DNA of 64,000 bases, taken from Acidobacteriota bacterium (GTDB lineage: Bacteria > Acidobacteriota > Thermoanaerobaculia > Gp7-AA8). The DNA is taken from positions 320,001 to 384,000 of the forward strand of contig JAFATB010000022.1 of assembly GCA_019244185.1 (NCBI GenBank), given 5' to 3'. A program made the translations under genes and the position numbers. How positions within the stretch are numbered: the first letter of the stretch is position 1; every line of letters starts with the position of its first letter. This document shows positions 2,609-54,734 of this stretch, piece after piece. A model generated the notes under the pieces. The model made no database searches. It worked only from the letters and a program-made list of their open reading frames with translations, and had not been told where the DNA came from.

Positions 2609-4096
2609 TCAGAACTGCGCGAAGCGCATGGCGCTCAGCAGCCAGACGCCGATGCCGGCGAGCGGCAGCCAGCGCGGCACGAGCCGCGCACGTGCGACGA
2701 GCCAGAGACAGCCGGTGAGCAGCGCGAGGACGAACAGTTGCGCGAAGATGATGTTGCCGAGCTGCTCGCGATGGAAACGGGCGGCGCCGAGGTCGCGCCA
2801 GACGAGGTAGGGATCGTCCTTCTGCAGCGTGCGCATCGAGCTCGTATCGAGGCGCAGCTGTTCGACGCGGATCGCCTCCTGCGGCGTCATGCGGATGGCT
2901 TGGCCCGTGTGCAGGTACGCGAGCACCGGCTGGCGGAGCAGCGTGTCGGCGAAGGCGAGGAAGCCGCAGATTGCGGCGACGGCGATGAACGCCGCGCGCC
3001 AGCGCCGATCGTCCCACAGGCGATGCGCGACGTAGCCGTAGGCGACGAGTGCCGCAAGCGCGACCGGCACCGCGCGGCGTGGATTGAGCTCCCAGTCCCA
3101 GCCATCGGCGAGACATTGTTCGAGGAAGTAGAAACACGGCACCAGCGCGACGAGGAGCCATGGCGTTCCGATGCGCGGCCGCAGGCGAAGCAGCAGAACG
3201 ATCGCGACGAGCAGCACCGGCCACGGCACCATCGCCAGGATCTGATGCACGCCGGCGTGCAGCCCGATGTGCGTGGCGACGAACGGCTGCAGCGCGTGCT
3301 CGATGGGATGTTTCACGAACTGGTACCACGCGGAGAGCACCGGACGGATGAAGCGCTGCCGCAGCTCCGTCGACATCGTGTCGTGACTCGCTTTGCGCAG
3401 CCACGCCGACCACACCAGCGTCGGCACGAGCGCGGCGATCGCGTAGAACGCGTAGTCGCGTTTGCGCGCGAAGCGCCGCACGGCGAGCACGTACGTCACG
3501 AGCGCGCCGAGCCAGACATACGGATCGTAGTTGAGGGTGAAGATCGCGGTGGCCAGGCCGAGGATCCACGGGTTGCGCGCGTCGTCGTCCTCCAATGCGA
3601 GCACGGCCAGGAACGTCAACCAGTTGACCATCGTGCCGAGGACGTACTGCATCGGCTGGCCGATGTACTCGACGTAGATCGGCAGCGTGAACGCGATCAT
3701 CAGCGTCAGCAGCGTCGCCGGACGTCGCACGCCGACGCGTTCGCCGAAGTTGACGCCCGCGTACGCGAAGAGCATCGCGAAGAGAAAGCCGGCGATGAAG
3801 CTGCCGATGAGATACGAGTGCGTGAACGCGCTCGCGAGCGACGACACGAACGAATGCAGCGGCAAACGCATGTTCTGCGCTTCCGTCCACGCCACCGGCG
3901 AGCCCTCGTAGAAGAAGAGCGTGATGCTCTTCACCATCTGCGCGTCGCCGTTCACCACCGCGCCGTTGATGCGCGACGACCAGCCGTCGAACATCGCCCA
4001 GCCGTACGAGTATGGCGAGCGGTCGGTGAGGTGCGTGAGCCCAATCGCGAGCAGCCACGCCCACAGCGCGGCCACCATTGCCCACTTCCGCCTCAC
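2609..4096 (-). CDS. Polytopic membrane protein, possible GT-C-fold glycosyltransferase
   Basis: 495 aa, about 12 hydrophobic segments, extracytoplasmic loop with Asp after TM1, late NPRR motif; function inferred only. Confidence 0.6.
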   Translation of the reverse strand: MRRKWAMVAALWAWLLAIGLTHLTDRSPYSYGWAMFDGWSSRINGAVVNGDAQMVKSITLFFYEGSPVAWTEAQNMRLPLHSFVSSLASAFTHSYLIGSFIAGFLFAMLFAYAGVNFGERVGVRRPATLLTLMIAFTLPIYVEYIGQPMQYVLGTMVNWLTFLAVLALEDDDARNPWILGLATAIFTLNYDPYVWLGALVTYVLAVRRFARKRDYAFYAIAALVPTLVWSAWLRKASHDTMSTELRQRFIRPVLSAWYQFVKHPIEHALQPFVATHIGLHAGVHQILAMVPWPVLLVAIVLLLRLRPRIGTPWLLVALVPCFYFLEQCLADGWDWELNPRRAVPVALAALVAYGYVAHRLWDDRRWRAAFIAVAAICGFLAFADTLLRQPVLAYLHTGQAIRMTPQEAIRVEQLRLDTSSMRTLQKDDPYLVWRDLGAARFHREQLGNIIFAQLFVLALLTGCLWLVARARLVPRWLPLAGIGVWLLSAMRFAQF

Positions 4097-4764
4097 GACG
4101 CTCCTCGGATGATCTCCACCAGCACCGGCTTCAAGCCATTGATCATGAATTGCACGCCGATCGCGCCGAGGAGCAGGGCCATGACTTTCGTGAAGACGGC
4201 GCGGCCGCGGTCGCCGATGAAGCGCGAGAGCGGCAGCGCCGCGAGCAGCGTCACGTACGACACCGCGCCGACGCCGACGATGGCCAGGATCACCGCGGCC
4301 TTGTGCTCCATGCGCGGGTAGAGGTTCACGAGCAGCATCGTCGACGTGATCGCCCCGGGCCCGGACAGCATCGGCACTGCCAGCGGCACGACGGCGATCG
4401 ACGACGGATCGATCTCCGCCTTCTCGACGTCGTGGTCTTCCATCCGCTTCTCGCCGCCGATGTTGTACGCGCGCCGCTCGTCGTGCTCGACCAGCGTGCG
4501 CAGCGCGTTCGTGAAGAAGATGATGCCGCCCATGATCTGGAACGCGGGAACCGTGATGCCGAAGAACTGGAAGACCCAGTTGCCGGCGACGAGGAAGATC
4601 GTCAGCACGGCGATGCAGGCCATCGACGCGACCAGCGCGACGCGCGCGCGGCCGGCGCGCGAGACGCCATCCGTCAGCGCCACGAACGACGGAATCACCG
4701 CGAGCGGGTTGACCATCGTGATCAGCGTGATGAAGGACAGCAGGACGACTTTCGACAGCGGCAT
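4093..4764 (-). CDS. MarC family integral membrane protein
   Basis: NPLAVIP, FFGITVPAFQIMGGII, AVVPLAVPMLSGPGAI, KVMALLLGAIGVQF. Confidence 0.92.
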   Translation of the reverse strand: MPLSKVVLLSFITLITMVNPLAVIPSFVALTDGVSRAGRARVALVASMACIAVLTIFLVAGNWVFQFFGITVPAFQIMGGIIFFTNALRTLVEHDERRAYNIGGEKRMEDHDVEKAEIDPSSIAVVPLAVPMLSGPGAITSTMLLVNLYPRMEHKAAVILAIVGVGAVSYVTLLAALPLSRFIGDRGRAVFTKVMALLLGAIGVQFMINGLKPVLVEIIRGAS

Positions 4765-4776
4765 CGGCGCGCGGGA

Positions 4777-7700
4777 TTATGGCACTTCGACGACTTCGTC
4801 ACGGTCGACGTCGACGTACCAGAGCATGCCGCTGCACGCGCGTCCGGTGAGCTCGCGGATGGCGCGGCAGTAGCGCGCCACCTGCTCGCGGTCGCGCGCG
4901 ACGCGGGCGGGCTCGGCGACGCCGCTCTTGTAGTCGACGACGACGTCGTTGCCGTTTTCTCGAATGAGCCGATCGACGCGCCGCTCGACGACGGCACCGT
5001 GCTCGACGAAGCGCAGCGGCAGCTCGCGTCCGACGGTCTCCGCGCGTGCGATGCGCAGCCACGTCGACGAGCGCGCGAGCGTGGTCAGACGCCGGCGTAC
5101 GCGCGCGACCGCGTCGTCGTCCGCCGCCGCCTCGAACGCGAGTTGGCGCAGCAGCGCGTCAACGTCGGACGTGCCGCCCCACAGCTCGAGCACGCGATGG
5201 AGGAGGATGCCGGTGGCGCGGTTGCGCGAGCCGGCGCGGCGCGCGGCGATCTCGCCGGTGCCGAGGCGCGGCGTGTCGGAGGTGAGGACCGGAAGCGTGA
5301 GCGGGACGATGTCGGACGTCGCGAGCGCATGCTCGTGCTGCGCGTCGCGCAGGCGGCGGCGCGTGCGCGCATCCGTCGGCGCGACGGTCATCTTCTCGAA
5401 CGCGACGGGGCCGAACGGCGTCGCGCGCACTTCGCGGCCTTGGTCCGGCCACGACGCGGCGAGGCTCTGGCGATCGCCCTGCAGCGCTTCGAGCAGGCAC
5501 TGATGGAAGCCGACGGAGCGCTTCTCTTCGACGTTGACGACGAAGACCACGTCGGTCATCGCGCGCGTCACGGCGACGTAGAACAGCCGCCGCATCTCCG
5601 CCTTCTCGCGTTGCGTGGCGATCTTCTTCAGCTCCTCGCCGCCGGCGTAGAGGAAGTTCGCGGAGAGCGAGTCCGCGCGCCCGGTGAGCACGAGGCTGCG
5701 CGGCTCCTCGACGGTGAAGAGCTGCATGGCCTCGCTACTGCCGACGCCGAAGGCGAGGTCGGGGAGGATCACCGTCTCGAACTCGAGTCCCTTCGCCGCA
5801 TGCACGGACAAAATGCGCACGGCGTTCTGCGTTTCGTCGAGCAGGCTCGGCTCCGCTTCTTCCACCTCGCCGCGGCGCCGCGCGATCTCGTCGACGAACT
5901 GCCGCACGGAGCCGCCGTAGCGCTGATCGTAGTCGAACGCAATCGCGCGGACGTGTTCGAGGTGGCTGAGGTGCCGCTCGCCGTCCGCCGCCGCGTCGTA
6001 TACGCGCTCGATGTGCGTCGTGGCGAGCACGAGGTCGATGAGCTGCGAGACGGTGAGGTGGCGCGCGCGTTCGCGCAGCGATGCGAGCGTGCGTTCGAAC
6101 GCGCTCCACTCTTCGCCGCGCGCCACGATCTCGACGTCCGTCAGCGCAAAGTACGGCGTGCGCGCCGCCGAGATCTGCGCGCCGCGATCGAACGGATACG
6201 CGATTGCGCGCAGCACCGCGAGCAGATCGACCGGCGCGCGGCGGTCGAGGAACAGCCGCGTCGGCGGCAGCACGTAGTCGATGCCGTGGCGGTCGAAGAC
6301 GTCGAGGTATTCGTCGATGCGCGTCAATCGCCGGAACAGGATCGCGAAGCGCTGCAGATCGCGCTCGCCGCCGTCGCGATGCGCACGGATCCACTCCGCG
6401 ATCGCCTCCGCTTCCGCCGGTCCGCGGTCGTCTTTCTCTTCGGCCGCTGCGTGCAGCAGCGTGACACGCGCATCGAGCTCGCGCCGCGACGCGGGCCGCG
6501 CCGCATGCAGCGCCTTGTACGCCGGGCGGAAGACATTCGGATCGTGCGCCTCCTCGGGGAACAGGCACTCGAACATCGCATTGATCGCGTCGAGCAGCGG
6601 CGGATCGCTGCGGTACTGCTCTTCGAGCCGCCGCCGTTCCGCGCCGCCCGTGACGAGGTCTTCCGTCATGCGGTAGTACGTCTCCGGATCGGCGCGGCGG
6701 AAGCCGTAGATCGACTGCTTCGGATCGCCGACGACGACCGTGCGGCCCGCGACGAAGGCGCCGCTTCCGTCGCGCGCGAGCCGATCGATGATCTGCGCCT
6801 GCGTGCGGTCCGTGTCCTGAAATTCGTCGACGAAGATGAAATCGAACTGCGCGCGCGCCCGCGCCAGCACGTGCTCGTCGTGCAGCACGGCGAGCGTGCG
6901 CAGCAGCAGATCGTCGAAGTCGACGACGCCGAGCTGGCGCTTCTGCGCGTCGAGGTATGCGAGGAAGCGCCGCGTCAGCGCGAGCAGCGCCATCGCCGCG
7001 CGATGACTGGCGAGGCGATCGACGATCGAGTCGCCGCGGTCGCCCGAGCGCAGCACGCGCATCGGCTCCTTGAGCGCGCCGGCCTGCACGAGGTTGATGT
7101 CGCGCATGCGCGCCGCGATCGGCAGCAGGTACTCGATCCAGTCGCCGAGCGTCGCGCCGTCGAACGGCGTTTCGCGCAGATATGCGGCCACGTCGCGGGC
7201 GGCAGGGTCTTTCGGCTGCGCGTCCTCGCGGCGGATCCACAGCACCGCATCCTCGAGCTTCTCGCGCACGAGCTCGAAGCTGCCGAAGTCGTAGCCGTCC
7301 TCCAGCAGCAGATCGCGGCGATTGATCAGCGTGAGGATCACCTCGCGGATCTGAAACAGATACCCGAAGTGCGTGAAGAGCAGCTCCCACTCCGCGACGA
7401 CTTCCGGCGGCGGATCGACGCGCGTTTCCTCGTCGAGCCACGCGTCGTACAGCTGGCCGTAGAGGAGCGAGCGCTCGAAGCCTTCGATGATCTTGAACTG
7501 CGGATCGAGTCCCGCTTCGATCGGGAACGTGCGCAGCAGCGACTGGCAGAACGAATGGATCGTCTGCGAGCGCAGCGCGTCGAGGTTCGCGAGGTGGTGC
7601 GCGATCGCCGCGCGTGCGCCCTCGTCGGCGGTGACGAGCGGATGCGCGGAGCCGACCGGCCACGCGATCGTGTCCGCGTCCGCGAGCTCTTCGAGCGCGC

Positions 7701-43621: not shown

Positions 43622-44436
43622 CGTTCGCGCGGGCGGCCGTGCGGCAACGCGTCGCGCATCCGCGCCATCGCGTGGACGTAGTCGTCGTACGTCGTGATCT
43701 CGTTCGCGAGCACGACGCGGCGCGCGATCGCGACCGCGCGGGCATTGTCCTTCGACACGCGGCTTTCCAGCCGGTCGAACAGCGCCACCAGACGCGCTTT
43801 CATCGCGCGGATGTGCAGCAGCTGCGCGGAAAGCCCGCGATCGTGGAGGCGCCATTCCGCCACGACGTCGCTGACGCTCCACACGCGCGGATGCCGATCG
43901 GCGATGCGCAGCCAGGCCGACCAGTCGTCGAAGTGGCTCGCCTCCGCGTCGAAGCCGCCGATCGCGCGCAACAGTTCCGTGCGCGCGAGCACCGCGTTCA
44001 CGTGCGGGTTGCACGTCAGCACATCGCTGAAGCTGACCGGCCCGTCTGATACGATGTGCGTCGGTACGGCATCCAATGTCGCCGGCGCTCTGCCCACGAC
44101 GCGTCGCGTCATGCCGAAACAAAGAGCGGCGCCGGAACGGCGCGCCGCGCGGAGCAGGGTCGCGATCCGATGCGGCAACGCGACGTCGTCGTCATCGAGG
44201 AAGATGATGAACGTGCCGCGGGCCGCCGCGAGTCCGGCATTGCGCGCGTATGCGACGCCGCGCGATTCGCCTCGCACGATGCGGAGATCGGCTCCGGCTC
44301 CCGCGAAATCGCCGCCGTCGTCGACGATCACGATTTCGAGATCGCGATGCGTCTCCGCGCGCAGCGACGCCACGGCCTCGTGCACGTGGAGCGGACGCAC
44401 GTGGGTCGTGATGACGGCTGTGACTTCGGGAGGCAA
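43600..44436 (-). CDS. GT2 family glycosyltransferase
   Basis: VITTHVR, IVIVDDG, ARNAG, FLDDDD, IGGFD, DDW. Confidence 0.9.
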
Positions 44437-44476
44437 GCGGCGCGGTCACGATAGCAGATCGCACTAGAATGCCCGC

Positions 44477-44914
44477 ATGCGCCCGCACTTCGTGCTGCTC
44501 CCGCTGCTGCTCTCGCTCTTCGCGTGCAAGTCGGCGCCGGTCGCGACGAACGCCAGTCGTCCCGAGATCGTGATGCAGGCGCAGAACACGCTCTTCTTCG
44601 GCAGCGGGAACACGGCGGCGCTCAGCGTCGCGGTCGGCTTCACGAACCGCGCGAAGGACGCGATCAAGGTCAACGCGGTCCGCCTCGATCCGGGCCTCAT
44701 GACCGAATACAGCGTCTATCCGCTCGAGCGCTTCGTGAACGTCACGCTGCAGCCGGGCGAATCGCAGGCGGTCGTGCTGAACATGACCGCGTACACGAAC
44801 CAGCGCCGGCTGATGCACGACGAGCCGCTCTCGCTGCGCGCCACCGTCGACTACACGCAGGGCGGGAAGCGCTACCGCGAGCGCTACTACGACGTGAATG
44901 TGAGCTCGCGGTGA
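44477..44914 (+). CDS. Hypothetical lipoprotein
   Basis: Lipobox LFAC, beta-rich Ig-like body. Confidence 0.7.
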   Translation: MRPHFVLLPLLLSLFACKSAPVATNASRPEIVMQAQNTLFFGSGNTAALSVAVGFTNRAKDAIKVNAVRLDPGLMTEYSVYPLERFVNVTLQPGESQAVVLNMTAYTNQRRLMHDEPLSLRATVDYTQGGKRYRERYYDVNVSSR

Positions 44915-44972
44915 CGCGATCCGCGACCCGAACCGCGAACCTGCCGCCGCATCCTCCGTATCAACGTCCGAC

Positions 44973-46205
44973 ATGAAGCGCCGCACGAAGATCCTCATCA
45001 CCGTCGCCGTCGTCATCCTTCTCGGCGGCATCACCGCCGCCTCACTGCTCAGCCGCGGCAAGGAAGGCACGCCCGTGGCCTTCGGCAAGACCGCGACGAT
45101 GGACCTCGTCAGCAAGGTCACGGCGAACGGCCGCATCGACGCGAAGCGCAAGGTCGATCTCTCCGCGAACGTGATGGGGCAGATCGTCAACCTCGCCGTG
45201 CGCGAGGGCGACGTCGTGAAGAAGGACGACTTCCTCCTGCAGATCGACCAGAAGCAGCTCGCCGCGTCGGCCGAAGGCGCGGCCGCGTCGATGCGCGCCC
45301 TCTTCTCCGACCGCGACGCCGCGCGCACGACGCTCGACATCACCCAGCGCGACTACGACCGCGCGCGGCGCAACTACGACGAGAAGATCATCCCGCTGGC
45401 CGACCTCGAGCGCGCGCGCAGCTCCGTCGACACCGCCCGCGCCAACGTCACCGCCATCGAGCAGCGCATCCAGCAGTCGCGCGCGAACCTCACCGCCGCG
45501 CGCGACACGCTCTCGAAGACCACCATGCGCGCGCCGATGGCCGGCATCATCACCGCCCTGCCGGTCGAGGAAGGGGAGGTGGCCGTCATCGGCACGATGA
45601 ACAACGCCGGCACGAAGCTCCTCACCATCGCCGACATGAGCGTCGTCGAGGCGGTCATGGAAGTCGACGAGACCGACATCCCGTCCGTGCGCGTCGGTCA
45701 GCGCGCCACCGTGACGATCGATGCATATCCAAACAAAACGTGGTCCGGCATCGTCACCGAAGTCGGCTCCAGCCCGATCACGCGCACGGGACTCTCGACG
45801 AGCAGCGAGGCCGTCAACTTCGAGGTGAAGATCCAGCTCGAACATCCGCCCGCCGACGTGCGCCCCGGCTTTTCCGCGAGCGCCGACATCATCACCGGCA
45901 CGCGCGCGAAGACGCTGGCCATCCCGATCCAGGCGCTGGTCGTGCGCGAGAAGCCGGGCAGCACGCCCGGCAAGTCGCAGGACGAAGAAGGCGTCTTCGT
46001 CGTGAAAGACGGCAAGGCGCAGTTCGTCCCCGTGACCACCGGCCTCGCCGGCGAGTCCGACATCGAGATCACCAGCGGCCTGAAGGCGGGCACGACGATC
46101 ATCACCGGCCCGTTCCGCGCGCTGCGCGAGCTCAAAGACGGCGAGAAGGTGCGCGAGCAGAAGGAAGAGAAGACGACGGGCGACAAGAGCGCGGAGAAGA
46201 AATAG
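44973..46205 (+). CDS. MacA-like periplasmic adaptor (membrane fusion protein)
   Basis: N-terminal TM, VREGDVVKKDDFLLQID, helical hairpin, RAPMAG, VDETDI. Confidence 0.92.
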   Translation: MKRRTKILITVAVVILLGGITAASLLSRGKEGTPVAFGKTATMDLVSKVTANGRIDAKRKVDLSANVMGQIVNLAVREGDVVKKDDFLLQIDQKQLAASAEGAAASMRALFSDRDAARTTLDITQRDYDRARRNYDEKIIPLADLERARSSVDTARANVTAIEQRIQQSRANLTAARDTLSKTTMRAPMAGIITALPVEEGEVAVIGTMNNAGTKLLTIADMSVVEAVMEVDETDIPSVRVGQRATVTIDAYPNKTWSGIVTEVGSSPITRTGLSTSSEAVNFEVKIQLEHPPADVRPGFSASADIITGTRAKTLAIPIQALVVREKPGSTPGKSQDEEGVFVVKDGKAQFVPVTTGLAGESDIEITSGLKAGTTIITGPFRALRELKDGEKVREQKEEKTTGDKSAEKK

Positions 46206-47416
46206 TGGAGACGCTCCGCATCGCCGCCACCGCCCTGCGCGCGCATACGCTGCGCAGCTTCCTCACGCTCCTCGGCGTGATCATCGGCGTGATGACGGTG
46301 GTCACCGTCGTGGCCATCATCTCGGGGCTCAACGACTACATCTCCGAGAAAGTCTTCCAGCTCAACCCCGACGTCTACGCCGTGACGCAGTACGGCATCA
46401 TCATGAGCCGCGAGCAGTGGCTCGAGGCGCTGAAGCGGAAGAAGATCACGGTCAGCGACTTCAACGCGGTGCGTGCGCGCTGCTCGCGCTGCGATGCGGT
46501 CGGCGCGTCGAACTCGACGCAGACGACGGTCAAGCGCGGCGCGCACCGGCTCGACGGCGTGCGCGTCAACGGCGCGACCGAGAACATGGCCGAGATTAAC
46601 AATCTCGACCTCGAGGCGGGCCGCTTCTACACGGCATCCGAGGAGCAGCGGTCGGCGCTGGTGACGGTCATTGGATCGGACGTGCGCGATGAGCTCTTCG
46701 GCAAGCTCGATCCGATCGGACGCACGATCTGGATCGCCAATCAGCCGATGCGCGTCATCGGCCTGCTCGCGAAGCAAGGCTCGGTGCTCGGACGCAGCCG
46801 CGACAACCAGCTGTACATCCCTTTGTCGTCGTGGCGGAAGCGCTTCGGCTCGCGCGACAGCATGGACCTCTTCGTGCGCGCGCGCGGCGGCATCGGCGGA
46901 CTCGAAGCCTCCATGGATGAAGTGCGGCTGATCATCCGCGGGCGGCGCAGAACCGCGTTCCGCGGCGACGATCCGTTCGCGGTCGTGACCGCGGAGGCGC
47001 TGCAGATGGTGTGGAAGAGCATCTCCGCGGGACTCTTCTCGCTGATGATCTTCATCTCCGGGATCTCGCTCGTCGTCGGCGGCATCGTGATCATGAACAT
47101 CATGCTGGTCTCCGTCGTCGAGCGGACGCGCGAGATCGGCGTGCGCCGCGCGATCGGCGCGACTCGCCGCAACATCCAACTGCAGTTTCTCAGCGAGGCC
47201 ATCCTCCTCTCCCTCGGCGGCGGCATTCTCGGCGTGCTCCTCGGCGTCGGGATCGCCAAGAGCATCTCCACGTTCGGCCCGCTGCCGACGCTCGTGCGCC
47301 CGATGCTGGTCGTGGCCGGCCTCGGCATCGCCGTCGTCACCGGCGCGCTCGCGGGCTTCGTCCCGGCGCTGCGCGCCGCAAAGCTGCCGCCGATCGAAGC
47401 GCTGAGGTTCGAATGA
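46205..47416 (+). CDS. MacB/FtsX-like ABC transporter permease
   Basis: LRSFLTLLGVIIGV, VGGIVIMNIMLVSVVERTREIGVRRAIGA, PIEALRFE; GTG overlaps adaptor stop. Confidence 0.92.
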   Translation: METLRIAATALRAHTLRSFLTLLGVIIGVMTVVTVVAIISGLNDYISEKVFQLNPDVYAVTQYGIIMSREQWLEALKRKKITVSDFNAVRARCSRCDAVGASNSTQTTVKRGAHRLDGVRVNGATENMAEINNLDLEAGRFYTASEEQRSALVTVIGSDVRDELFGKLDPIGRTIWIANQPMRVIGLLAKQGSVLGRSRDNQLYIPLSSWRKRFGSRDSMDLFVRARGGIGGLEASMDEVRLIIRGRRRTAFRGDDPFAVVTAEALQMVWKSISAGLFSLMIFISGISLVVGGIVIMNIMLVSVVERTREIGVRRAIGATRRNIQLQFLSEAILLSLGGGILGVLLGVGIAKSISTFGPLPTLVRPMLVVAGLGIAVVTGALAGFVPALRAAKLPPIEALRFE

Positions 47417-48681
47417 TGCGACGTGAGGCACTGGCATCCACCGTCGAGAACGTGCGCTTCGCGCGCATCGCCCTCGCCGCGCACAAACTGCGCTCGTCGC
47501 TGACCGTGCTCGGCATCGTCATCGGCGTGACCACCGTCATCGCGATGGTGTCGATCATCGAAGGCTTCAACAACAACGTCGTGAAGAATTTCCAGTCGTT
47601 CGGCGCGACGCTCGTGCAGTTCCAGAAATACGACCCGCGCTTCGTCAACCCCTCGCGCGACGAGTCGCAGCGGCTGCGCAAGAACCTCACGTACGAAGAC
47701 GCGCTCGCGCTCAAGCGCCTCTGCCCGTCGATGCTCGCGGTCTCGGCCGAGCGCTACATCTGGTCCGGCGAGGAGACCTCGATCGACATCGGCTACGGCG
47801 GCGAGGTGGCCACGCCCGACGGCCTGATCGGGACGACGCAGGACTATCCGATCGCGAACAACCACTTCGTCGGCGAGGGGCGCTTTTTCGGCGAGGCGGA
47901 CGTGCGCCGCTCCGGCGCGGTGCTGGTGCTCGGACGCGGGCTCGCGGACACGCTCTTTCCGCGCACCGATCCCCTCGGCAAAGTGGTCAGCATCTACGGC
48001 CGCAAATACCTCGTCATCGGCGTGATGGAGAAGCAGGGCGCGACGATGTTCGAGTCCACCGACTCGCACGCGTACATCCCGCTGACGACGTTCGACAACC
48101 ACTTCCCGTGGGTGAAGCGCGACCGCGGCGTGAACATCGCCACCGTGCCGCGCAAGCCGGAGTGGGTCGACCGCGTCATCGACGAAGGCACCGCGGTGCT
48201 GCGCGCGCGCCGCCGCGTGCCGTTCAACAAGCCGAACGACTTCGGGATCATGACGCCCGACAAGCTGATCGGAAACTTCCGCGCGATCACCGGCGGCATC
48301 ACGCTGGCCATGATCTTCATCTCGTCGATCGCGCTGCTCGTCGGCGGCGTCGGCGTGATGAACATCATGCTGGTCTCGGTGACCGAGCGCACGCGCGAGA
48401 TCGGCCTGCGCAAAGCGATCGGCGCCGTGCGCCGCGACATCGTGCAGCAGTTTCTCACCGAGGCGATGACGCTGTCGGGCGTGGGCGGCGTGATCGGGAT
48501 CCTGCTCGGACTGGCCATCGCCGCGATCGTGCGCGCGATCAGTCCGTTGCCGACGACGACGCCGGTGTGGTCGATCGTGGTCGGCCTCGTGGTGTCGATC
48601 TCGATCGGGCTGTTCTTCGGGATTTATCCCGCGTACAAGGCCGCGCGGCTCGATCCGGTCGACGCGTTGCGCTACGAATAG
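47413..48681 (+). CDS. MacB/FtsX-like ABC transporter permease
   Basis: KLRSSLTVLGIVIGV, GGVGVMNIMLVSVTERTREIGLRKAIGA, DPVDALRYE. Confidence 0.92.
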   Translation: MMRREALASTVENVRFARIALAAHKLRSSLTVLGIVIGVTTVIAMVSIIEGFNNNVVKNFQSFGATLVQFQKYDPRFVNPSRDESQRLRKNLTYEDALALKRLCPSMLAVSAERYIWSGEETSIDIGYGGEVATPDGLIGTTQDYPIANNHFVGEGRFFGEADVRRSGAVLVLGRGLADTLFPRTDPLGKVVSIYGRKYLVIGVMEKQGATMFESTDSHAYIPLTTFDNHFPWVKRDRGVNIATVPRKPEWVDRVIDEGTAVLRARRRVPFNKPNDFGIMTPDKLIGNFRAITGGITLAMIFISSIALLVGGVGVMNIMLVSVTERTREIGLRKAIGAVRRDIVQQFLTEAMTLSGVGGVIGILLGLAIAAIVRAISPLPTTTPVWSIVVGLVVSISIGLFFGIYPAYKAARLDPVDALRYE

Positions 48682-48694
48682 CCGGGCCCGGTCG

Positions 48695-48700
48695 TATAAT
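48695..48700 (+). promoter_or_regulatory. -10 box, probable leaderless promoter of the GNAT-aminotransferase operon
   Basis: Perfect TATAAT 7 nt before ATG 48708, no Shine-Dalgarno sequence. Confidence 0.6.
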
Positions 48701-48707
48701 CTCCTTC

Positions 48708-50273
48708 ATGCCACAATTCCGGTTCAAGATCGCGAGCGATCCTCGCGAGCTGGAGCAGATTCATGCGCTGAATTACCGCACGTTCGTCGAGGAGATCCCG
48801 CAGCATTCGCCGAACTCCGACGGACGACTCGTCGATCGCTTCCACGACGAGAACGTGTACGCGATCTCGCTGAGCGGCGAGCGCGTCGTGGGCATGCTCG
48901 CCATCCGCGAGCAGCGCCCGTTCTCGCTCGATCAGAAGCTCGGCAACATCGATGACTTTCTGCCCGCCGTCCGCAAGCCGTGCGAGGTGCGGCTGCTCGC
49001 GGTGGAGAAGGAACATCGCACCGGGCCGGTGCTGCCGGGGCTTCTGTCGGTGCTCTGGGAGCACGCGCACGCGCGGCAGTTCGACTGCGCGGTGATCTCG
49101 GCGACGACGCGCCAGCTGAAGCTCTACGGCCACCTCGGGTTCGTCCCGTTCGGACAGCTCGTCGGCACGGAGGAGGCGGCGTTCCAGCCGATGTACATCA
49201 CGCGCGAGCGGTTCCTGGAGAACGCGCGTGCGCTGCAGCTCGCGCCGGCGGCGCGCGAGGCGACGGTCAACCTGTTGACCGGTCCGGTGGCGTTGCACGC
49301 GGACGTCGCCGCGGCGCTGCGCCGCGCGCCGGAAGGACATCGCTCGCAGGCGTTCCTCGCGGACATGGACGCGCTGCGCACCAGCCTCCGCGCGCTGACG
49401 CGCGCGCCGCACGTGGCCGTGCTCCTCGGTAGCGGCACGCTCGCGAACGACGTCGTCGCCGCGCAGCTCTCGCGGCTCGACACGCGCGGCCTCGTCGTCA
49501 GCAACGGCGAGTTCGGCGAGCGGCTCGCGGATCAGGCGCGCCGGGCGCGGCTCGACTGCGAGCACCTGCGCTTCGACTGGAGCGTGCCGCTCGATCTCGA
49601 CGCCATCGCGAAACGCGACTTCGACTGGCTGTGGATGACGGCCTGCGAGACGTCGACGGCGATGCTGAACGATGTCGCCGCGCTCGGCGCCCTGTGCCGC
49701 GCGCGCGGCGCGAAGCTCTGCCTCGACGCGGTCAGCGCGATCGGCGCGGTGCCGCTCGATCTCTCGCATGTCTATCTCGCCAGCGGCACGAGCGGCAAAG
49801 CGTTCGCGTCCGCGCCCGGACTCGCGCTCGTCTTCCACGACCACGACGTCGAGCCGGCGCAGGAGCTCCCGCGCTATCTCGACCTCGGGCTCTATGTCCG
49901 CGAAGACAGCGTGCCGTTCACGCATTCGTCGAATCTCGTGCGCGCGCTGCGCGTCGCCGTCGAGCGCGTCGACTGGCCGCGTCGTTACGCGGAGCTCGCG
50001 TCGATGGGCCGCTGGCTGCGCTCGCGGGTCGCGGCAAGCGGCTGGAGGGTTCTCGGTAAGGACGCCGCCGCCGCGCCGCACGTCGTCACGCTCGCGCTGC
50101 CGCCGGAGGTCGACGCCGCGCGGTTCGCGCGCGTGCTCGAGGCGCGCGGCTTTCTCATCGGCCACGCCAGCGGCTATCTCCGCGCGCGCAACTGGATCCA
50201 GCTCGCGTGGATGGGGGAGGTCACGCGCGACGACCTGCAACGCGCGCTGCGCGAGCTCCGGCGCGTGTCATGA
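48708..50273 (+). CDS. GNAT N-acyltransferase / PLP-dependent class-V aminotransferase fusion
   Basis: N-terminal LNYRTFVEEIPQH..CEVRLLAVEKEHR GNAT; C-terminal LTGPV, GSGTLAND, NGEFGER, CETST, DAVS, SGK (PLP Lys). Confidence 0.85.
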   Translation: MPQFRFKIASDPRELEQIHALNYRTFVEEIPQHSPNSDGRLVDRFHDENVYAISLSGERVVGMLAIREQRPFSLDQKLGNIDDFLPAVRKPCEVRLLAVEKEHRTGPVLPGLLSVLWEHAHARQFDCAVISATTRQLKLYGHLGFVPFGQLVGTEEAAFQPMYITRERFLENARALQLAPAAREATVNLLTGPVALHADVAAALRRAPEGHRSQAFLADMDALRTSLRALTRAPHVAVLLGSGTLANDVVAAQLSRLDTRGLVVSNGEFGERLADQARRARLDCEHLRFDWSVPLDLDAIAKRDFDWLWMTACETSTAMLNDVAALGALCRARGAKLCLDAVSAIGAVPLDLSHVYLASGTSGKAFASAPGLALVFHDHDVEPAQELPRYLDLGLYVREDSVPFTHSSNLVRALRVAVERVDWPRRYAELASMGRWLRSRVAASGWRVLGKDAAAAPHVVTLALPPEVDAARFARVLEARGFLIGHASGYLRARNWIQLAWMGEVTRDDLQRALRELRRVS

Positions 50274-51091
50274 GCGCCGCGCTTCTGCGCAGTCGCCACG
50301 CGGCGTGGCTCACGCACGGCAGCGCCGCCGTGATGACCGTCGCGCTCTTCGCGCTGCTGCTGCGCGTGCCGTTCGCGTACGCGTTCGTGCCGGCGGTGCT
50401 CCTGACGCACCGCATCGGCGTGATGATGCACGAGTACATCCACGGCATCCCGTTCCGCCGCTACGCGAACTGCCTGCGCGTGCTGGCGTTCTTCGACGGC
50501 GTCATGCTGATGTTCGGCCTGCTCGAGCTCTTCCGCGCCACGCATCTCTCGCATCACCGCTGGCTCAACGGCGAAGGCGACTCGGCCTTCGACAACGCGC
50601 GCGTGAAGCGCCATCCGAACCGCGTGCTCGGCGCGCTGCTCGCGCTCGAGGTCACGCAGCATCTGAAGTTCTACTGGGAAGCGCTGCACGGCAAGCATCC
50701 CTTCGCGCGCCCGCGCCGCATCGCGTTCTGCTTCGCCTGGAGCTGCTGCTGCATCGCCGCGTGGTGTCTCATCGGACGCGCGGATATCGTCTGGAAGCTG
50801 CTGTTGCTGACCGCGTTCACGACCAGCGTGCCGGTCTCGCTGCGCGGTGCCGTCGAGCATCACGCCGAGCCGGGACACGACGGATTCGCGAACGAGTACC
50901 GCACGCTCATCCCGCTCTTCAACCTCAACCGCCACATCCACCATCACGAGCAGCCGGCGCTGCCGTGGTACCTGCTCGAGTTCCGCACGCCGGAGCCGCT
51001 GCATCCGAGGCACTACTACACGTATTGGTTCCGGACGTATGTGCGCAAGGAGCTCGTGCTGATGCAGCCGATGCAACGCGCGCGGAGGTAG
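50270..51091 (+). CDS. Membrane fatty acid desaturase family protein
   Basis: Three His boxes HEYIH, HLSHH, HIHHH; ATGA overlap with upstream gene. Confidence 0.88.
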   Translation: MSAALLRSRHAAWLTHGSAAVMTVALFALLLRVPFAYAFVPAVLLTHRIGVMMHEYIHGIPFRRYANCLRVLAFFDGVMLMFGLLELFRATHLSHHRWLNGEGDSAFDNARVKRHPNRVLGALLALEVTQHLKFYWEALHGKHPFARPRRIAFCFAWSCCCIAAWCLIGRADIVWKLLLLTAFTTSVPVSLRGAVEHHAEPGHDGFANEYRTLIPLFNLNRHIHHHEQPALPWYLLEFRTPEPLHPRHYYTYWFRTYVRKELVLMQPMQRARR

Positions 51092-51121
51092 GGAAACGGC
51101 GCGAATCCCACTCTCCTCAGC

Positions 51122-52342
51122 ATGGGACTCGCGCTCGCCGTCGACGCGCCGCCGCCATCCACCGTGCCGGTGGAGGTGGCGGGATACTTCATCGATACCA
51201 CCAGCGGCTCGCCGCTCCACCGCATCACGCACTTTCAGACGGGGCAGACGTTCGTGCTCGTCCGCGCGTACCTCATCGCCGTCGCTGTGACGTACGTGCC
51301 GCTCGCGCTCGCGGCGCTGCTCGGCCCCGCGCCGATCGGCGCGCCGAGTGCCAGCGTGCGCCTGCCGTTTCTCTACGACTGGAACATCATCTTCACGTTC
51401 CTCGTGTCGTTCCCGGCGGTGATCGTCTACACGATCTCCGATCACGCCGCGCTGTCGGCGGCGCTCTCGAGCATCCAGCAGGACGGCATCCTGATCGTGC
51501 CTGAGGCGGAGGCGCGGAAGCTCAGCCGCGTGTGGGGGCCGCGCTTCCGGCGCATCAACCAGCTCTCGCTCGTCGCCGGCGCGCTGGTCGGCCTCGCGCT
51601 GATCGTCGGCAACATCCACGCGTACAGCCAGCCCGGCGTCGGCTTCTGGGTCGACTTCAGCGACCGCCGCCCCGGCGCGCTGCTCGTCGGCTGCGCGTTC
51701 CTCTACTGCATCGTGACGGTCTACTTCTCGATGATCGTCTTCGTCTTCCGCAGCATCGCCATCGCGTTCTTCCTCAACGACGTCGTCGACGACGCGCAGC
51801 TGCGCATGGTGCCGTTCCATCCCGATCACTGCGGCGGCCTGCGCCCGGTCGGCCGCTTCGGACTGCGCAACCAGTACGTCCTCAGCATCCTCGGCTTCAA
51901 CGTGGTGCTGCTCCTCGGCGTGACGGTCAGCTACTTGACCATTCCGTCGTCGCTCTTCGCGCTCATCACCGGCGCCGCGCTGGCGTACCTGATCCTCGGC
52001 CCGCTCGTCTTCATGGGGCCGCTGCTGTCGTTCCGCACCGGCATGGTGCGCACGAAGGGCGAGCTGATGGGGGAGATCGCACAGCGCCTCCGCCGCGAGC
52101 TGCAGCGCCTGCGCAAGGAGCTGCCGTCCGGCGAGATCACGCGCGACGACGAGGAGCTCATCGACCGCCTGCGCAAGGTGGGCGGGGTGATCGACGAGCT
52201 GCCGGTCTGGCCGTTCGATGCGAACACGCTGCGCCGCTTTCTCACCGCGTACGTCACGCCGCTTCTCGGCGCGCTCGCCGTGCCGCTGCTCGACAAAGCT
52301 TGGGACGTCGTGCTGTCCGTCGTGAAGATCAGCGCCTCGTGA
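51122..52342 (+). CDS. Uncharacterised polytopic membrane protein
   Basis: About 7 TM helices, PFHPDHCGGLRPVG and LPVWPFD motifs. Confidence 0.7.
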   Translation: MGLALAVDAPPPSTVPVEVAGYFIDTTSGSPLHRITHFQTGQTFVLVRAYLIAVAVTYVPLALAALLGPAPIGAPSASVRLPFLYDWNIIFTFLVSFPAVIVYTISDHAALSAALSSIQQDGILIVPEAEARKLSRVWGPRFRRINQLSLVAGALVGLALIVGNIHAYSQPGVGFWVDFSDRRPGALLVGCAFLYCIVTVYFSMIVFVFRSIAIAFFLNDVVDDAQLRMVPFHPDHCGGLRPVGRFGLRNQYVLSILGFNVVLLLGVTVSYLTIPSSLFALITGAALAYLILGPLVFMGPLLSFRTGMVRTKGELMGEIAQRLRRELQRLRKELPSGEITRDDEELIDRLRKVGGVIDELPVWPFDANTLRRFLTAYVTPLLGALAVPLLDKAWDVVLSVVKISAS

Positions 52343-53999
52343 ACGCGACGCCTCCAACAGTGACGCTGTTGCCCGCGAACGTCAACGGCAGTGCGGCGTG
52401 CGCGCCGAAGTCGTAAGCCGTCAGCGTTCCGTCGGACGTGGCGGCGAAGACGCGCGCGAGCGGCGGCGCCTCGCCGGGCGAGCTGCCCACGAGACGTCCT
52501 TCGCCTTTGTCGCGCCAGAGAAACGACATGCCGTTCGCGCCGCGCTCCCACTGATAGGCGACGAACACGCGCGCGGCGCCGCGCCTCATCGGCAACGCGC
52601 CGCGGACGTCGAACGCGCGCAACGCGCCGTACTTGCCCGTCAGCGTCGTCCATTCGGTGATGTAGTCGGGAACGTATTCGGCGCCGTCGCCGTACAGGGC
52701 GGCGGTGTACGCGTCTTTCGCGTTGCCCGCGCGCAAACCCTCGAGCAGCGCGTTCGTCTTCGCGACCGCTTTCGCGAGCGACGCCGCGTCGGCACTCGCG
52801 TTCCACAACGCGATCGCCGCGTTCGGATCCAGCGCGTCAGCGACCAGCTGCCGTCCGACGCGATGGAACTGCAGCCGCGCGCCATTCGCCGCGGTGTAGA
52901 TGCCGTCGCGCGGAGCGGCGCCGGCATCGCGGACGTCCGGCAGCGGCTCGAGTTTCGCGGGTGCGCCCGCGAGCGCCGTGATCGCGTCCTGCACGCCCCA
53001 GCGCAGCCAGATGCCGTTGAGCTCCGTGCGGTTGCTCGTGAGGATGATCGCGATCTTTTCCTTCGGGTAGTAGCGCATCGTGCAGCTGAAGCCCGGCTCC
53101 GTGTCGCCGCCGTGCTCGAGCAGCGTGTCGCCGACGAACCACGCGTAGCCGTACGAGTCGTCACCCTTCGGCATCTTCACGTGGCGCGCGGTCATCTTGG
53201 CGAACTGCGCGGGCGGAATGACGCGCCCTTCGCGCAAGGCGCGCGCGAACGTCGCCAGATCTTCGGCGGTCGAGAAGACGCTGCCCGCGCCCCACGTGCG
53301 CGGGTTGTCCGGCCACGACGCGACGGAGCCCTGCGGTGCGAAGCCGCGATACGCGGTCGCCGCGTCGCGAAAGCGCGCGGAGTCGACGCCGTACACGCCG
53401 CTGTGCTTCATGCGCAGTGGATCGAAGATCGCTTTGTGCAGATATGCCGCGTACGACATGCCGGATGCGCGCTCGATGATCGCGGCGAGCAGGTTGTAGC
53501 CCGCGTTCGCGTAGCGCCACGTGCCGGGCGTCTTGCGCGGCTGCGCGAGGATCTTTGCGATGAGCGCGCGATGCTCGATCGGCGCGAAGTCGTCGACGAC
53601 GTCGCCCGGTGGCAAGCCGGACGTGTGCGTCAGCAGCTGATGGATGGTGATGTCGCGCCGGTCGTCGGGCACGTTGTCGATGTAGCGGTCGATCGTATCG
53701 GTGACGTGCAGCTTGCCGTCCGCCTCGAGGCGCAGGATCGCCGCGGCGGTGAACTGCTTCGATTCCGAGGCGATGTTGAAGATCGTGTTGCGCGTGACAC
53801 GTGCGGCGCGCGCGCGGTCGGCGAAGCCGTATGCGCCGTCGTGAATGACGACGCCATCGCGCTCGACGACGACCTGTCCGTCGAAGCCGAGCGCCTCGGC
53901 GCGCGCGAGGTAATCGGCGATGGCGCGATGCGAGGGAGCGGCGACGGCGATGACGGCGGTGAGGAGAGAGCAGAGCAGCACAACGATTCGACGAAACAT
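52329..53999 (-). CDS. Beta-lactamase-family (class C-like) serine hydrolase
   Basis: Signal peptide, SxxK (ASESK), LLTHTSG, YAN, HGG, C-terminal extension. Confidence 0.9.
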   Translation of the reverse strand: MFRRIVVLLCSLLTAVIAVAAPSHRAIADYLARAEALGFDGQVVVERDGVVIHDGAYGFADRARAARVTRNTIFNIASESKQFTAAAILRLEADGKLHVTDTIDRYIDNVPDDRRDITIHQLLTHTSGLPPGDVVDDFAPIEHRALIAKILAQPRKTPGTWRYANAGYNLLAAIIERASGMSYAAYLHKAIFDPLRMKHSGVYGVDSARFRDAATAYRGFAPQGSVASWPDNPRTWGAGSVFSTAEDLATFARALREGRVIPPAQFAKMTARHVKMPKGDDSYGYAWFVGDTLLEHGGDTEPGFSCTMRYYPKEKIAIILTSNRTELNGIWLRWGVQDAITALAGAPAKLEPLPDVRDAGAAPRDGIYTAANGARLQFHRVGRQLVADALDPNAAIALWNASADAASLAKAVAKTNALLEGLRAGNAKDAYTAALYGDGAEYVPDYITEWTTLTGKYGALRAFDVRGALPMRRGAARVFVAYQWERGANGMSFLWRDKGEGRLVGSSPGEAPPLARVFAATSDGTLTAYDFGAHAALPLTFAGNSVTVGGVAFTRR

Positions 54000-54065: not shown

Positions 54066-54734
54066 GTGAAACGGTTGCATGACGACGAGGTGCATCTGCA
54101 CCTGGCGGCGGTGACAGCGCCGCGCGGCTTCGAGGCGTTGCTCGCCGGCGCGCGCGCGCATCTCAGCGAGGCCGAAGTCGCGGCGGCGCTGCGGTTCCGC
54201 TTCGAGCGCCATCGCATCCTCTACGCGTTCGCCCATTCGTTCCTGCGCGTGACGCTCGCGTCGTATCTCGACGTCGCGCCGGCGTCGCTCGCGTTCGAGC
54301 AGCTCGAGCACGGGCGGCCCGAGCTCGCCGACCGCGCGCTGCGCTTCAACCTCTCGCATACGGAAGGCATGGTGATGGTCGGCGTGACGCCGCGCGCGGA
54401 CATCGGCGTCGATGTCGAGCGCATCGACGCCGAGCGTGCGGACGAAGCGCTCGCGCGGCGCGTCTTCACGCCGGACGAGCTACGCGATTGGCGGGGCGAT
54501 GCGGAGTGGTTCTTCGACCACTGGACGCTCAAGGAGTCCTACATGAAAGCCCGCGGCGTCGGCCTCTCCCTCGGCCTGCAGTCGTTCGGCTTCGACGGTA
54601 CGCAACTCGTCTGCGAGCCGTCCTTCGATGCGCCCGCGCGCTGGCAGTTCCTCTCCCTCGCCGCATCGCCGTCGCACCGCGCCGCGGCGTGCGTGGCGTC
54701 CGCCGGGCCGGTGCGCTGGCGGCTCTTCAGTTAA
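54066..54734 (+). CDS. Sfp-type 4'-phosphopantetheinyl transferase
   Basis: HGRP, FNLSHT, IGVDVE, WTLKESYMKARGVGL. Confidence 0.92.
   Translation: MKRLHDDEVHLHLAAVTAPRGFEALLAGARAHLSEAEVAAALRFRFERHRILYAFAHSFLRVTLASYLDVAPASLAFEQLEHGRPELADRALRFNLSHTEGMVMVGVTPRADIGVDVERIDAERADEALARRVFTPDELRDWRGDAEWFFDHWTLKESYMKARGVGLSLGLQSFGFDGTQLVCEPSFDAPARWQFLSLAASPSHRAAACVASAGPVRWRLFS

Follow-up and report, generated by a model that had tools for sequence, protein, structure and literature searches.

A stretch of 64,000 nucleotides from the genome of a soil acidobacterium (assembly GCA_019244185.1, contig JAFATB010000022.1, positions 320,001 to 384,000; the genome, 98.9% complete, is called G000 below and the whole stretch the window) encodes a two-domain protein, FUS, that joins an N-acyltransferase of the GNAT type to a class-V pyridoxal 5'-phosphate (PLP) aminotransferase, and whose gene overlaps that of DES, a membrane protein of the desaturase/hydroxylase family, followed by that of a further membrane protein, MEM406. 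The interpretation that we favour, with a probability of about 0.5 judged from sequence comparisons, is that FUS makes serinol phosphate from dihydroxyacetone phosphate (DHAP) and N-acylates it, and that DES tailors the product by desaturation or hydroxylation. The domain architecture, the breadth of the family, the recurring FUS-DES adjacency and the PlsY-like partner elsewhere are observed directly; what we infer in this scheme are the DHAP substrate, the acyl donor, the reaction of DES, and the roles of MEM406 and of MacAB-like genes in the same string. The core novelty lies in a widespread FUS family and its PlsY-like acyltransferase partner, to which the window adds a rare, recurrent variant in which FUS, DES and MEM406 would form a tailoring module.

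According to this proposal, FUS would be a soluble two-domain lipid-head-group synthase. Its PLP domain would aminate a small phosphorylated ketone, most likely DHAP, to give serinol phosphate, and the FeeM-type GNAT domain would then place a long acyl chain on the amine. The resulting N-acyl serinol phosphate would be either dephosphorylated to N-acyl serinol or extended into a membrane lipid, and DES would, most likely, desaturate or hydroxylate the FUS product within the membrane. The features concerned are the following (coordinates are those of the window):

48708-50273 (+): FUS, 521-amino-acid two-domain enzyme, predicted N-acyl amino-alcohol (serinol phosphate) synthase; translation of a stop-free open reading frame (ORF)
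48759-49160 (+): FeeM/N-acyl synthase (NAS)-type GNAT N-acyltransferase domain, FUS residues ~18-151 (Pfam)
49260-50270 (+): class-V PLP aminotransferase domain, FUS residues ~185-521, with Lys364, Asp340, His211-Arg212, Arg492 and Gln498
50270-51091 (+): DES, 273-amino-acid membrane di-iron desaturase/hydroxylase-family protein
51122-52342 (+): MEM406, 406-amino-acid membrane protein, starting 30 nucleotides past DES

A long-chain N-acyl synthase fused to an aminotransferase

The first-pass annotation of this DNA had seen an acyl-ACP-type GNAT domain and a class-V aminotransferase in a single 521-amino-acid protein, and both halves of that description hold for the ORF at 48708-50273, with Pfam scores above the cut-offs. 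Residues 18-151 match FeeM (PF21926; 34.5 bits, cut-off 27), FUS also matches Acetyltransf_5 (PF13444; 28.0 bits, cut-off 22.4), and these two families both recur in 20/20 diverse members of the FUS family; residues 210-378 match Aminotran_5 (26.9 bits, cut-off 21.5), the aminotransferase domain thus lying C-terminal to the N-acyl synthase domain in the same polypeptide. The best PDB sequence match of the GNAT domain, an acyl-homoserine-lactone synthase, is weak (E 0.012). Going by its profile matches, the N-terminal domain of FUS is a member of the long-chain N-acyl synthase branch of GNAT enzymes and not of the small-molecule acetyltransferase branch, a placement in which would have spoken against the pathway suggested in the first pass. 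G000 has a second, stronger match to Acetyltransf_5 (82.8 bits) in a long open frame at G000:C6:550749-551057, which is probably a separate aminolipid (OlsB/OlsF-like) synthase.

The two domains also occur as neighbouring genes. In genome G301 (locus L138, G301:C38), a FeeM-type GNAT gene at 2767-3492 and a class-V aminotransferase gene at 3489-4586 overlap by four bases; the latter is 49% identical to the aminotransferase domain of FUS, and a true split and a frameshift are alike possible.

The aminotransferase domain and its substrate pocket

Which substrate might the PLP domain accept? Every NCBIfam aminotransferase model stays under its cut-off for FUS. The best curated one, TIGR03301 (PhnW-AepZ), matches residues 191-518 with 139.7 bits (cut-off 360.8), and the models for alanine-glyoxylate-type and phosphoserine aminotransferases score below it, with those for SerC far below their cut-offs (TIGR01366, 28.8 versus 401.65; NF003764, 20.5 versus 253). 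Transaminases of 2-aminoethylphosphonate (AEP) in the PDB match the domain with E values of 1e-13 to 1e-15. The DAVS (Asp340) and SGK (Lys364) motifs recorded in the first pass are in place, and the Schiff-base Lys364, Asp340 and about 100 more positions are invariant across phyla in 20/20 aligned homologues. The domain had also been called complete there, which is right for these PLP residues but not for the canonical substrate Arg, which is replaced by Gln498. In HMMER alignments to 2yri, 1vjo, 1iug, 2dr1 and 1m32, this glutamine stands opposite the conserved Arg of the C-terminal xRxGxxG motif (fRignig in 1m32, an AEP transaminase); it is invariant in the 20 homologues, and the Bacillus homologue has Gln as well.

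An alignment to SerC of Escherichia coli K-12, at 17% identity, places His211/Arg212 of FUS on His41/Arg42, Arg492 on Arg329 and Gln498 on Arg335, and the His211-Arg212 pair is invariant in the FUS family. In SerC, we take it that His41, Arg42 and Arg329 hold the phosphate and that Arg335 holds the carboxylate. Since the His-Arg pair and Arg492 are kept and the carboxylate Arg has given way to Gln498, the pocket would suit a substrate that bears a phosphate and no carboxylate, a description that the conversion of DHAP to serinol phosphate fits and phosphoserine does not. A phosphonate head group, AEP, was considered and rejected as unlikely: phosphoenolpyruvate (PEP) mutase (TIGR02320), by which phosphonoacetaldehyde would be supplied, gave no match at E <=0.001 in G000 and none over the cut-off in five further FUS genomes (0/6 in all).

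Spread of the family and its PlsY-like partner

Of 8000 candidates scored in a protein search, 5440 match at E <=0.001, and 116 of the 120 matches listed cover at least 95% of FUS at 51-100% identity. At least 571 stretches in species-representative genomes encode a FUS relative (571 of 600 pattern matches were confirmed), most of them in Verrucomicrobiota and Thermoanaerobaculia by their record labels, some of which appear to be wrong. When phyla are sampled evenly, FUS is found at E <=1e-60 in 12/401 Acidobacteriota genomes (11 of them with a full-length copy, the twelfth being G301 with its overlapping genes) and in 8/201 Verrucomicrobiota genomes, with the centre genome counted; within the genus of the window it is found in 6/25 genomes and outside it in 0/16 sampled, G002 and G024 being counted as negatives. 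Full-length homologues of 39-43% identity occur in Bacillota, on plasmids of Bacillus toyonensis (39% over 520 amino acids) and Cytobacillus spongiae and on one Bacillus chromosome, and with the B. toyonensis protein as query the family is found throughout the Bacillus cereus group, where its annotation goes no further than 'aminotransferase class V-fold' or 'GNAT family'. All this makes FUS an accessory enzyme of patchy occurrence that extends over at least three phyla.

Neighbour clustering carried out de novo on 86 FUS loci (85 distinct, as L004 and L014 share a contig) identified one dominant neighbour, a gene for about 220 amino acids that lies immediately upstream of FUS on the same strand in 55 of the 86 and belongs to the PlsY family (PF02660; 147.5 bits). 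A more sensitive search puts a PlsY-family gene directly beside FUS in 60 of 97 rows (96 different ones). The four Verrucomicrobiota genomes checked, in which the adjacency was derived from gene coordinates, all have two PlsY genes, and the copy beside FUS is the weaker match in each (129-139 versus 175-192 bits); the partner proteins retain the PlsY motifs and depart from canonical PlsY at nine alignment columns. The PlsY-FUS unit recurs in three Bacillota records (Bacillus, Cytobacillus) and in the Acidobacteriota G325 and G421, and in G472 (L139 1086-3305, G472:C1) the PlsY-like, GNAT and aminotransferase parts form a triple fusion in one open frame of 739 amino acids. On the C. spongiae plasmid (NZ_CP089998.1; L125 4097-8921), genes for a TMEM164-family membrane protein, a PlsY-like protein, FUS and a lipoteichoic acid (LTA)-synthase-family protein of the sulfatase fold follow each other on the same strand, with a glycerophosphodiesterase gene nearby; together they may form a more extensive module for lipids or teichoic-acid anchors.

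The commonest partner of the FUS family is thus a PlsY-like acyltransferase and not a desaturase, and there is no PlsY-family gene beside FUS in the window. The outline given in the first pass, in which an aminotransferase makes the amine, a GNAT domain acylates it and a desaturase tailors the result, is retained here, with its emphasis shifted to the PlsY-like partner. A dedicated PlsY calls for an acceptor that resembles glycerol 3-phosphate, and serinol phosphate or its N-acyl derivative would qualify. As a tentative extension, which we do not consider probable, the FUS family and its PlsY paralogue might together build 1-O-acyl-2-N-acyl-serinol 3-phosphate, an amide analogue of phosphatidic acid derived from DHAP and not from glycerol 3-phosphate, in scattered Verrucomicrobiota, Acidobacteriota, members of the Bacillus cereus group and others, with tailoring by DES or, in sister genomes, by a cytochrome P450.

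Could FUS make a different N-acyl amine, such as N-acyl-2-aminoethylphosphonate, N-acyl phosphoethanolamine, or an N-acyl amino acid whose amino acid is supplied by the PLP domain? It would be in keeping with such products that the AEP aminotransferase model scores highest in NCBIfam, that AEP transaminases are the PDB relatives named above, and that FeeM-type enzymes usually acylate amino acids according to the Pfam family description. However, TIGR03301 falls short by 139.7 against 360.8 bits, PEP mutase exceeds its cut-off in 0/6 FUS genomes, Gln498 occupies the place of the carboxylate- or phosphonate-binding Arg that amino-acid products would lead one to expect, and a PlsY-like partner would need a free hydroxyl on its phosphate-bearing acceptor, which N-acyl phosphoethanolamine and N-acyl-AEP would both lack. 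We therefore regard this alternative as unlikely.

The desaturase-family gene beside FUS

The ATG of DES (50270-50272) shares bases with the TGA of FUS (50271-50273; gtcATGAgc), an overlap that couples the two genes translationally, and the first-pass description of an overlapping gene for a desaturase with three His boxes is borne out. The protein (50270-51091) matches FA_desaturase (PF00487) with 58.6 bits against a cut-off of 29.7; its boxes HEYIH (H54, H58), HLSHH (H92, H95, H96) and HIHHH (H222, H224-226), which fit the patterns HX3H, HX2HH and HX2HH, are invariant in 18/18 homologues, as are additional EHH and NEY motifs, and a hydropathy scan gives four hydrophobic segments. Searches with DES gave no NCBIfam family match, no useful solved relative among PDB sequences and no match in the plasmid collection; an Atlas feature search points to clusters with a sphingolipid-desaturase N-terminal domain (score 0.94), which serves as a lead only. 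A protein search yielded 333 homologues among 2883 candidates scored, and DES occurs in 1/41 relatives of the window genome and in 2/401 genomes of the even Acidobacteriota sample, both of them among the 11 with full-length FUS. G000 holds four further genes of the FA_desaturase family, so that DES is an extra copy. It is a rare accessory of the FUS family.

None of the best-scoring FUS loci has DES. That the pair might be unique to the window was an idea overturned by searches centred on DES, in which FUS lies within 1.3 kb of DES on 10/25 metagenome contigs carrying a DES homologue; of the 15 others, 11, L114 among them, have less than 700 nucleotides on at least one side of it. The two genes converge in L100, L101, L102, L104, L105, L106 and L116, are co-directional as in the window in L118 and L119, the latter with a PlsY-family gene in front, and are separated by a MEM406 homologue in L099. 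Altogether five arrangements were seen: FUS>DES; DES>FUS; DES> <FUS; DES>MEM406> <FUS; and PlsY>FUS>DES. The FUS copies concerned can be distant from that of the window, with 49% identity in L119 and 37% in genome G098, where DES is directly upstream of FUS. In a quick IQ-TREE phylogeny of 97 FUS rows with SH-aLRT (approximate likelihood-ratio test) support, all DES-linked rows except that of G098 (L130) belong to one clade of 20 rows (support 95), which includes DES-free members; adjacent loci of related genomes do not count as independent observations. The link of FUS to DES is seen within a single clade of acidobacteria and in two distant cases, and the pairing, whose lack of synteny elsewhere would have spoken against a common pathway, recurs in G098 and at 10/25 metagenome DES loci in several gene orders. 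In L120, the DES homologue (5890-6492) ends after about residue 200 and FUS is missing from flanks that are as in L101, L102 and L106, which looks like joint decay of the pair; the flanking genes of L015 match those of the same three loci, and DES is absent there. An Mpo1-like gene (PF06127, 2-hydroxy fatty acid dioxygenase family) occurs two genes from the DES/FUS pair in L102 (4236-4772) and also in L101, L106 and L015, which together show one conserved neighbourhood.

DES might instead serve the bulk membrane lipids as a common acyl-lipid desaturase or hydroxylase, leave the FUS product alone and lie beside FUS by shared descent of the neighbourhood. Its sole family signature is the generic PF00487, FUS is missing from four or five of the DES loci whose flanks are long enough, and, as most DES-linked FUS genes are in one clade, their adjacency could be inherited. 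On the other hand, the adjacency persists over five gene orders, both orientations and unrelated flanks, and holds for the FUS copies of 37% (G098) and 49% (L119) identity; within the 401-genome sample DES is found only in FUS genomes; in L120, whose neighbourhood is otherwise identical, FUS is gone and DES is truncated; and G000 has four other FA_desaturase genes. Taken together, these points make a bulk-lipid role improbable.

What, then, would DES do to a product of FUS? The first pass had suggested that it might form an enamide, for which we find nothing in support. A subclade within the DES clade, of the same genus as the window, has a cytochrome P450 gene 37 nucleotides upstream of FUS (four rows, L014, L016, L094 and L095, from three distinct loci, as L014 and L095 are on the same contig), and the nearest solved relatives of this P450 are the hydroxylases CYP175A1, CYP97 and CYP4. 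Because a P450 takes the place of DES at these sister loci, hydroxylation by DES would fit equally well and may be considered at least as likely as desaturation. In L014 and L016, the P450 gene and a PAP2_3 phosphatase-family gene diverge; the arrangement in L014 is as follows:

L014 5731-6834 (-): PAP2_3 phosphatase-family gene
L014 6819-7964 (+): cytochrome P450
L014 8001-9584 (+): FUS

MEM406 has at least six hydrophobic segments, no match in Pfam or NCBIfam, and hits to unnamed clusters alone in the Atlas. It occurs in 1/41 relatives (G000 only), and apart from L099 a homologue lies beside FUS in L013. It is probably the third member of the module.

Points that weigh against the proposed pathway

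Several observations count against the conversion of DHAP to a tailored N-acyl serinol phosphate. The reading of the pocket leans on the residue roles reported for SerC and on an alignment with an identity of only 17%. Because the Arg that would bind the amino-acid donor is missing, the PLP domain, to judge by its sequence, may be something other than an ordinary transaminase. The only PF02660 gene of G000 lies elsewhere (contig C14), so that the argument from PlsY is borrowed from relatives. As for DES, most FUS genes occur without it; L103, L109, L113 and L120 have at least 700 nucleotides on both sides of DES and no FUS, and the 5.9 kb downstream of DES in L114 contain none either. The DES of G098 (L130 9090-9872, G098:C9) spans three frames with two frame changes and may be either a broken gene or an assembly error, and since the DES-bearing rows besides L130 fall into one clade, the recurrent adjacency reflects shared ancestry in part. 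Finally, among the 120 proteins listed from the search seeded with B. toyonensis, which are from Bacillaceae or unnamed, none is named as Gemella, the source of the enzyme to which FUS is compared below.

To our knowledge, serinol is not a normal metabolite of E. coli. The nas gene of Gemella haemolysans alone leads E. coli to form N-oleoyl serinol (PMC13012048). We would argue that the enzyme then has to make the amine itself. That the PLP domain of FUS is a lyase, a decarboxylase or a regulatory pseudo-enzyme, and that FUS acylates an amine made elsewhere, would agree with the loss of the canonical substrate Arg to Gln498 and with NCBIfam scores that are all below cut-off, but it is very improbable in view of the invariance of Lys364, Asp340 and some 100 other positions across phyla, the linkage to GNAT that persists even as overlapping separate genes in G301, and, if homology to FUS is assumed, the self-sufficiency of the Gemella gene.

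Genes around the module

The window has a G+C content of about 68% throughout, with no compositional break at the FUS/DES locus. FUS, DES and MEM406 are the last three of six genes in a tight string on the + strand, and further features of the region are:

44973-46205 (+): HlyD-family adaptor (Pfam)
46205-47416 and 47413-48681 (+): two MacB-like FtsX permeases (Pfam)
48695-48700 (+): TATAAT hexamer, 7 nucleotides ahead of the FUS ATG; candidate promoter element only
52329-53999 (-): beta-lactamase-family gene, downstream of the module
54066-54734 (+): Sfp-type 4'-phosphopantetheinyl transferase, downstream of the module

The HlyD and MacB-like genes are translationally coupled, each start overlapping the stop of the gene before, and the gap from the last of them to FUS is 26 nucleotides; the HlyD-MacB-MacB string (44973-48681) has no gene for an ATP-binding cassette (ABC) ATPase. 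The order HlyD-MacB-MacB-FUS recurs in G007 (L093), without DES and with MacB genes that share 73-79% identity with those of the window, and was not seen at the remaining FUS loci inspected. The string is possibly co-transcribed with FUS, and its membership of the module is uncertain. The idea that these MacAB-like genes export the lipid was set aside, as it draws on context only and the link exists in just 2/6 FUS loci of the genus. The phosphopantetheinyl transferase and the beta-lactamase-family gene were likewise not retained as members of the module, neither being conserved beside FUS elsewhere; a gene for a TonB-dependent receptor also lies downstream.

The TATAAT box that the first pass had assigned to FUS is present at 48695-48700, but it is no evidence of a separate promoter: a promoter scan across 44000-53000 gave no -35/-10 pair, and the hexamer is one of two in the window, a number equalled or exceeded in 23/100 shuffles. 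As a -10 box, it would imply a leaderless transcript beginning at the FUS start codon or right beside it.

Relation to known systems

We know of only one enzyme source of N-acyl serinols that has been studied. The first-pass annotation had taken it as established that two-domain N-acyltransferase/aminotransferase enzymes of human-associated Firmicutes make N-acyl serinols; this agrees in part with the product of the Gemella nas gene described above. The Gemella enzyme is reportedly a PF13444-type domain fused to an aminotransferase domain. It is by this description, and not by sequence, that we set it beside FUS, which differs in coming from a soil acidobacterium and in being coupled to DES and MEM406. 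Serinol is among the six product families of 143 human-microbiome NAS genes (PMC7899087), and human GPR119 is reported to have N-acyl serinols among its bacterial ligands (PMC13012048, PMC7899087). The literature searched, which omits most subscription journals, yielded no description of a desaturase-family gene or an unknown membrane protein together with nas, and no report that links a NAS-aminotransferase to a desaturase or to PlsY. Compared with the PlsY-coupled NAS-aminotransferase module of its relatives, the window has the same two-domain family with DES and MEM406 as partners and no PlsY neighbour.

Another parallel is the rhizobitoxine pathway of Bradyrhizobium elkanii, in which, as stated in two reports (PMC3222319, PMC6304460), RtxA is a DHAP aminotransferase producing serinol phosphate and RtxC is the dihydrorhizobitoxine desaturase. 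The likeness to rtxA/rtxC, drawn from these descriptions only, is that of a serinol-forming transaminase and a desaturase in one pathway; the product, by contrast, is a secreted amino acid and not a lipid, and the pair lacks a GNAT domain. RtxC is counted among the fatty-acid desaturases. With the PF00487 superfamily, which comprises fatty-acid desaturases, sphingolipid delta-4 desaturases and alkane hydroxylases, DES shares its three His boxes and four hydrophobic segments, and it differs in being short (273 amino acids), in its EHH and NEY motifs and in fitting no NCBIfam family.

The two domains of FUS can likewise be compared with single enzymes. FeeM/OlsB-type synthases have the GNAT subfamilies PF21926 and PF13444 in common with FUS, but they use ready-made amino acids and have no PLP domain; the tailoring of ornithine lipids uses other hydroxylase families. 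SerC and PhnW/AepZ share the fold family of the PLP domain, in which the PLP Lys and Asp are kept, and are distinguished from it by the fusion to GNAT, by Gln498 in place of their Arg and by model scores below the cut-offs.

What the family may mean for bacterial lipids

An architecture of the FUS type is present in at least three phyla, even in bacteria as well studied as the Bacillus cereus group, where its annotation is generic, and its modules vary, with a second PlsY in some, a P450 and a PAP2 phosphatase in others, and rarely a desaturase-family enzyme. With just two genes, FUS and DES make a simple system in which a new lipid-tailoring activity could be tested. Should the amide-linked analogue of phosphatidic acid exist, it would be a new backbone of bacterial membrane lipids, so far undescribed and ceramide-like, and its modification by DES or a P450 would be a bacterial parallel to ceramide tailoring that does without a sphingoid base. 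Should these bacteria contain unidentified aminolipids or aminophospholipids, such a backbone might also explain them.

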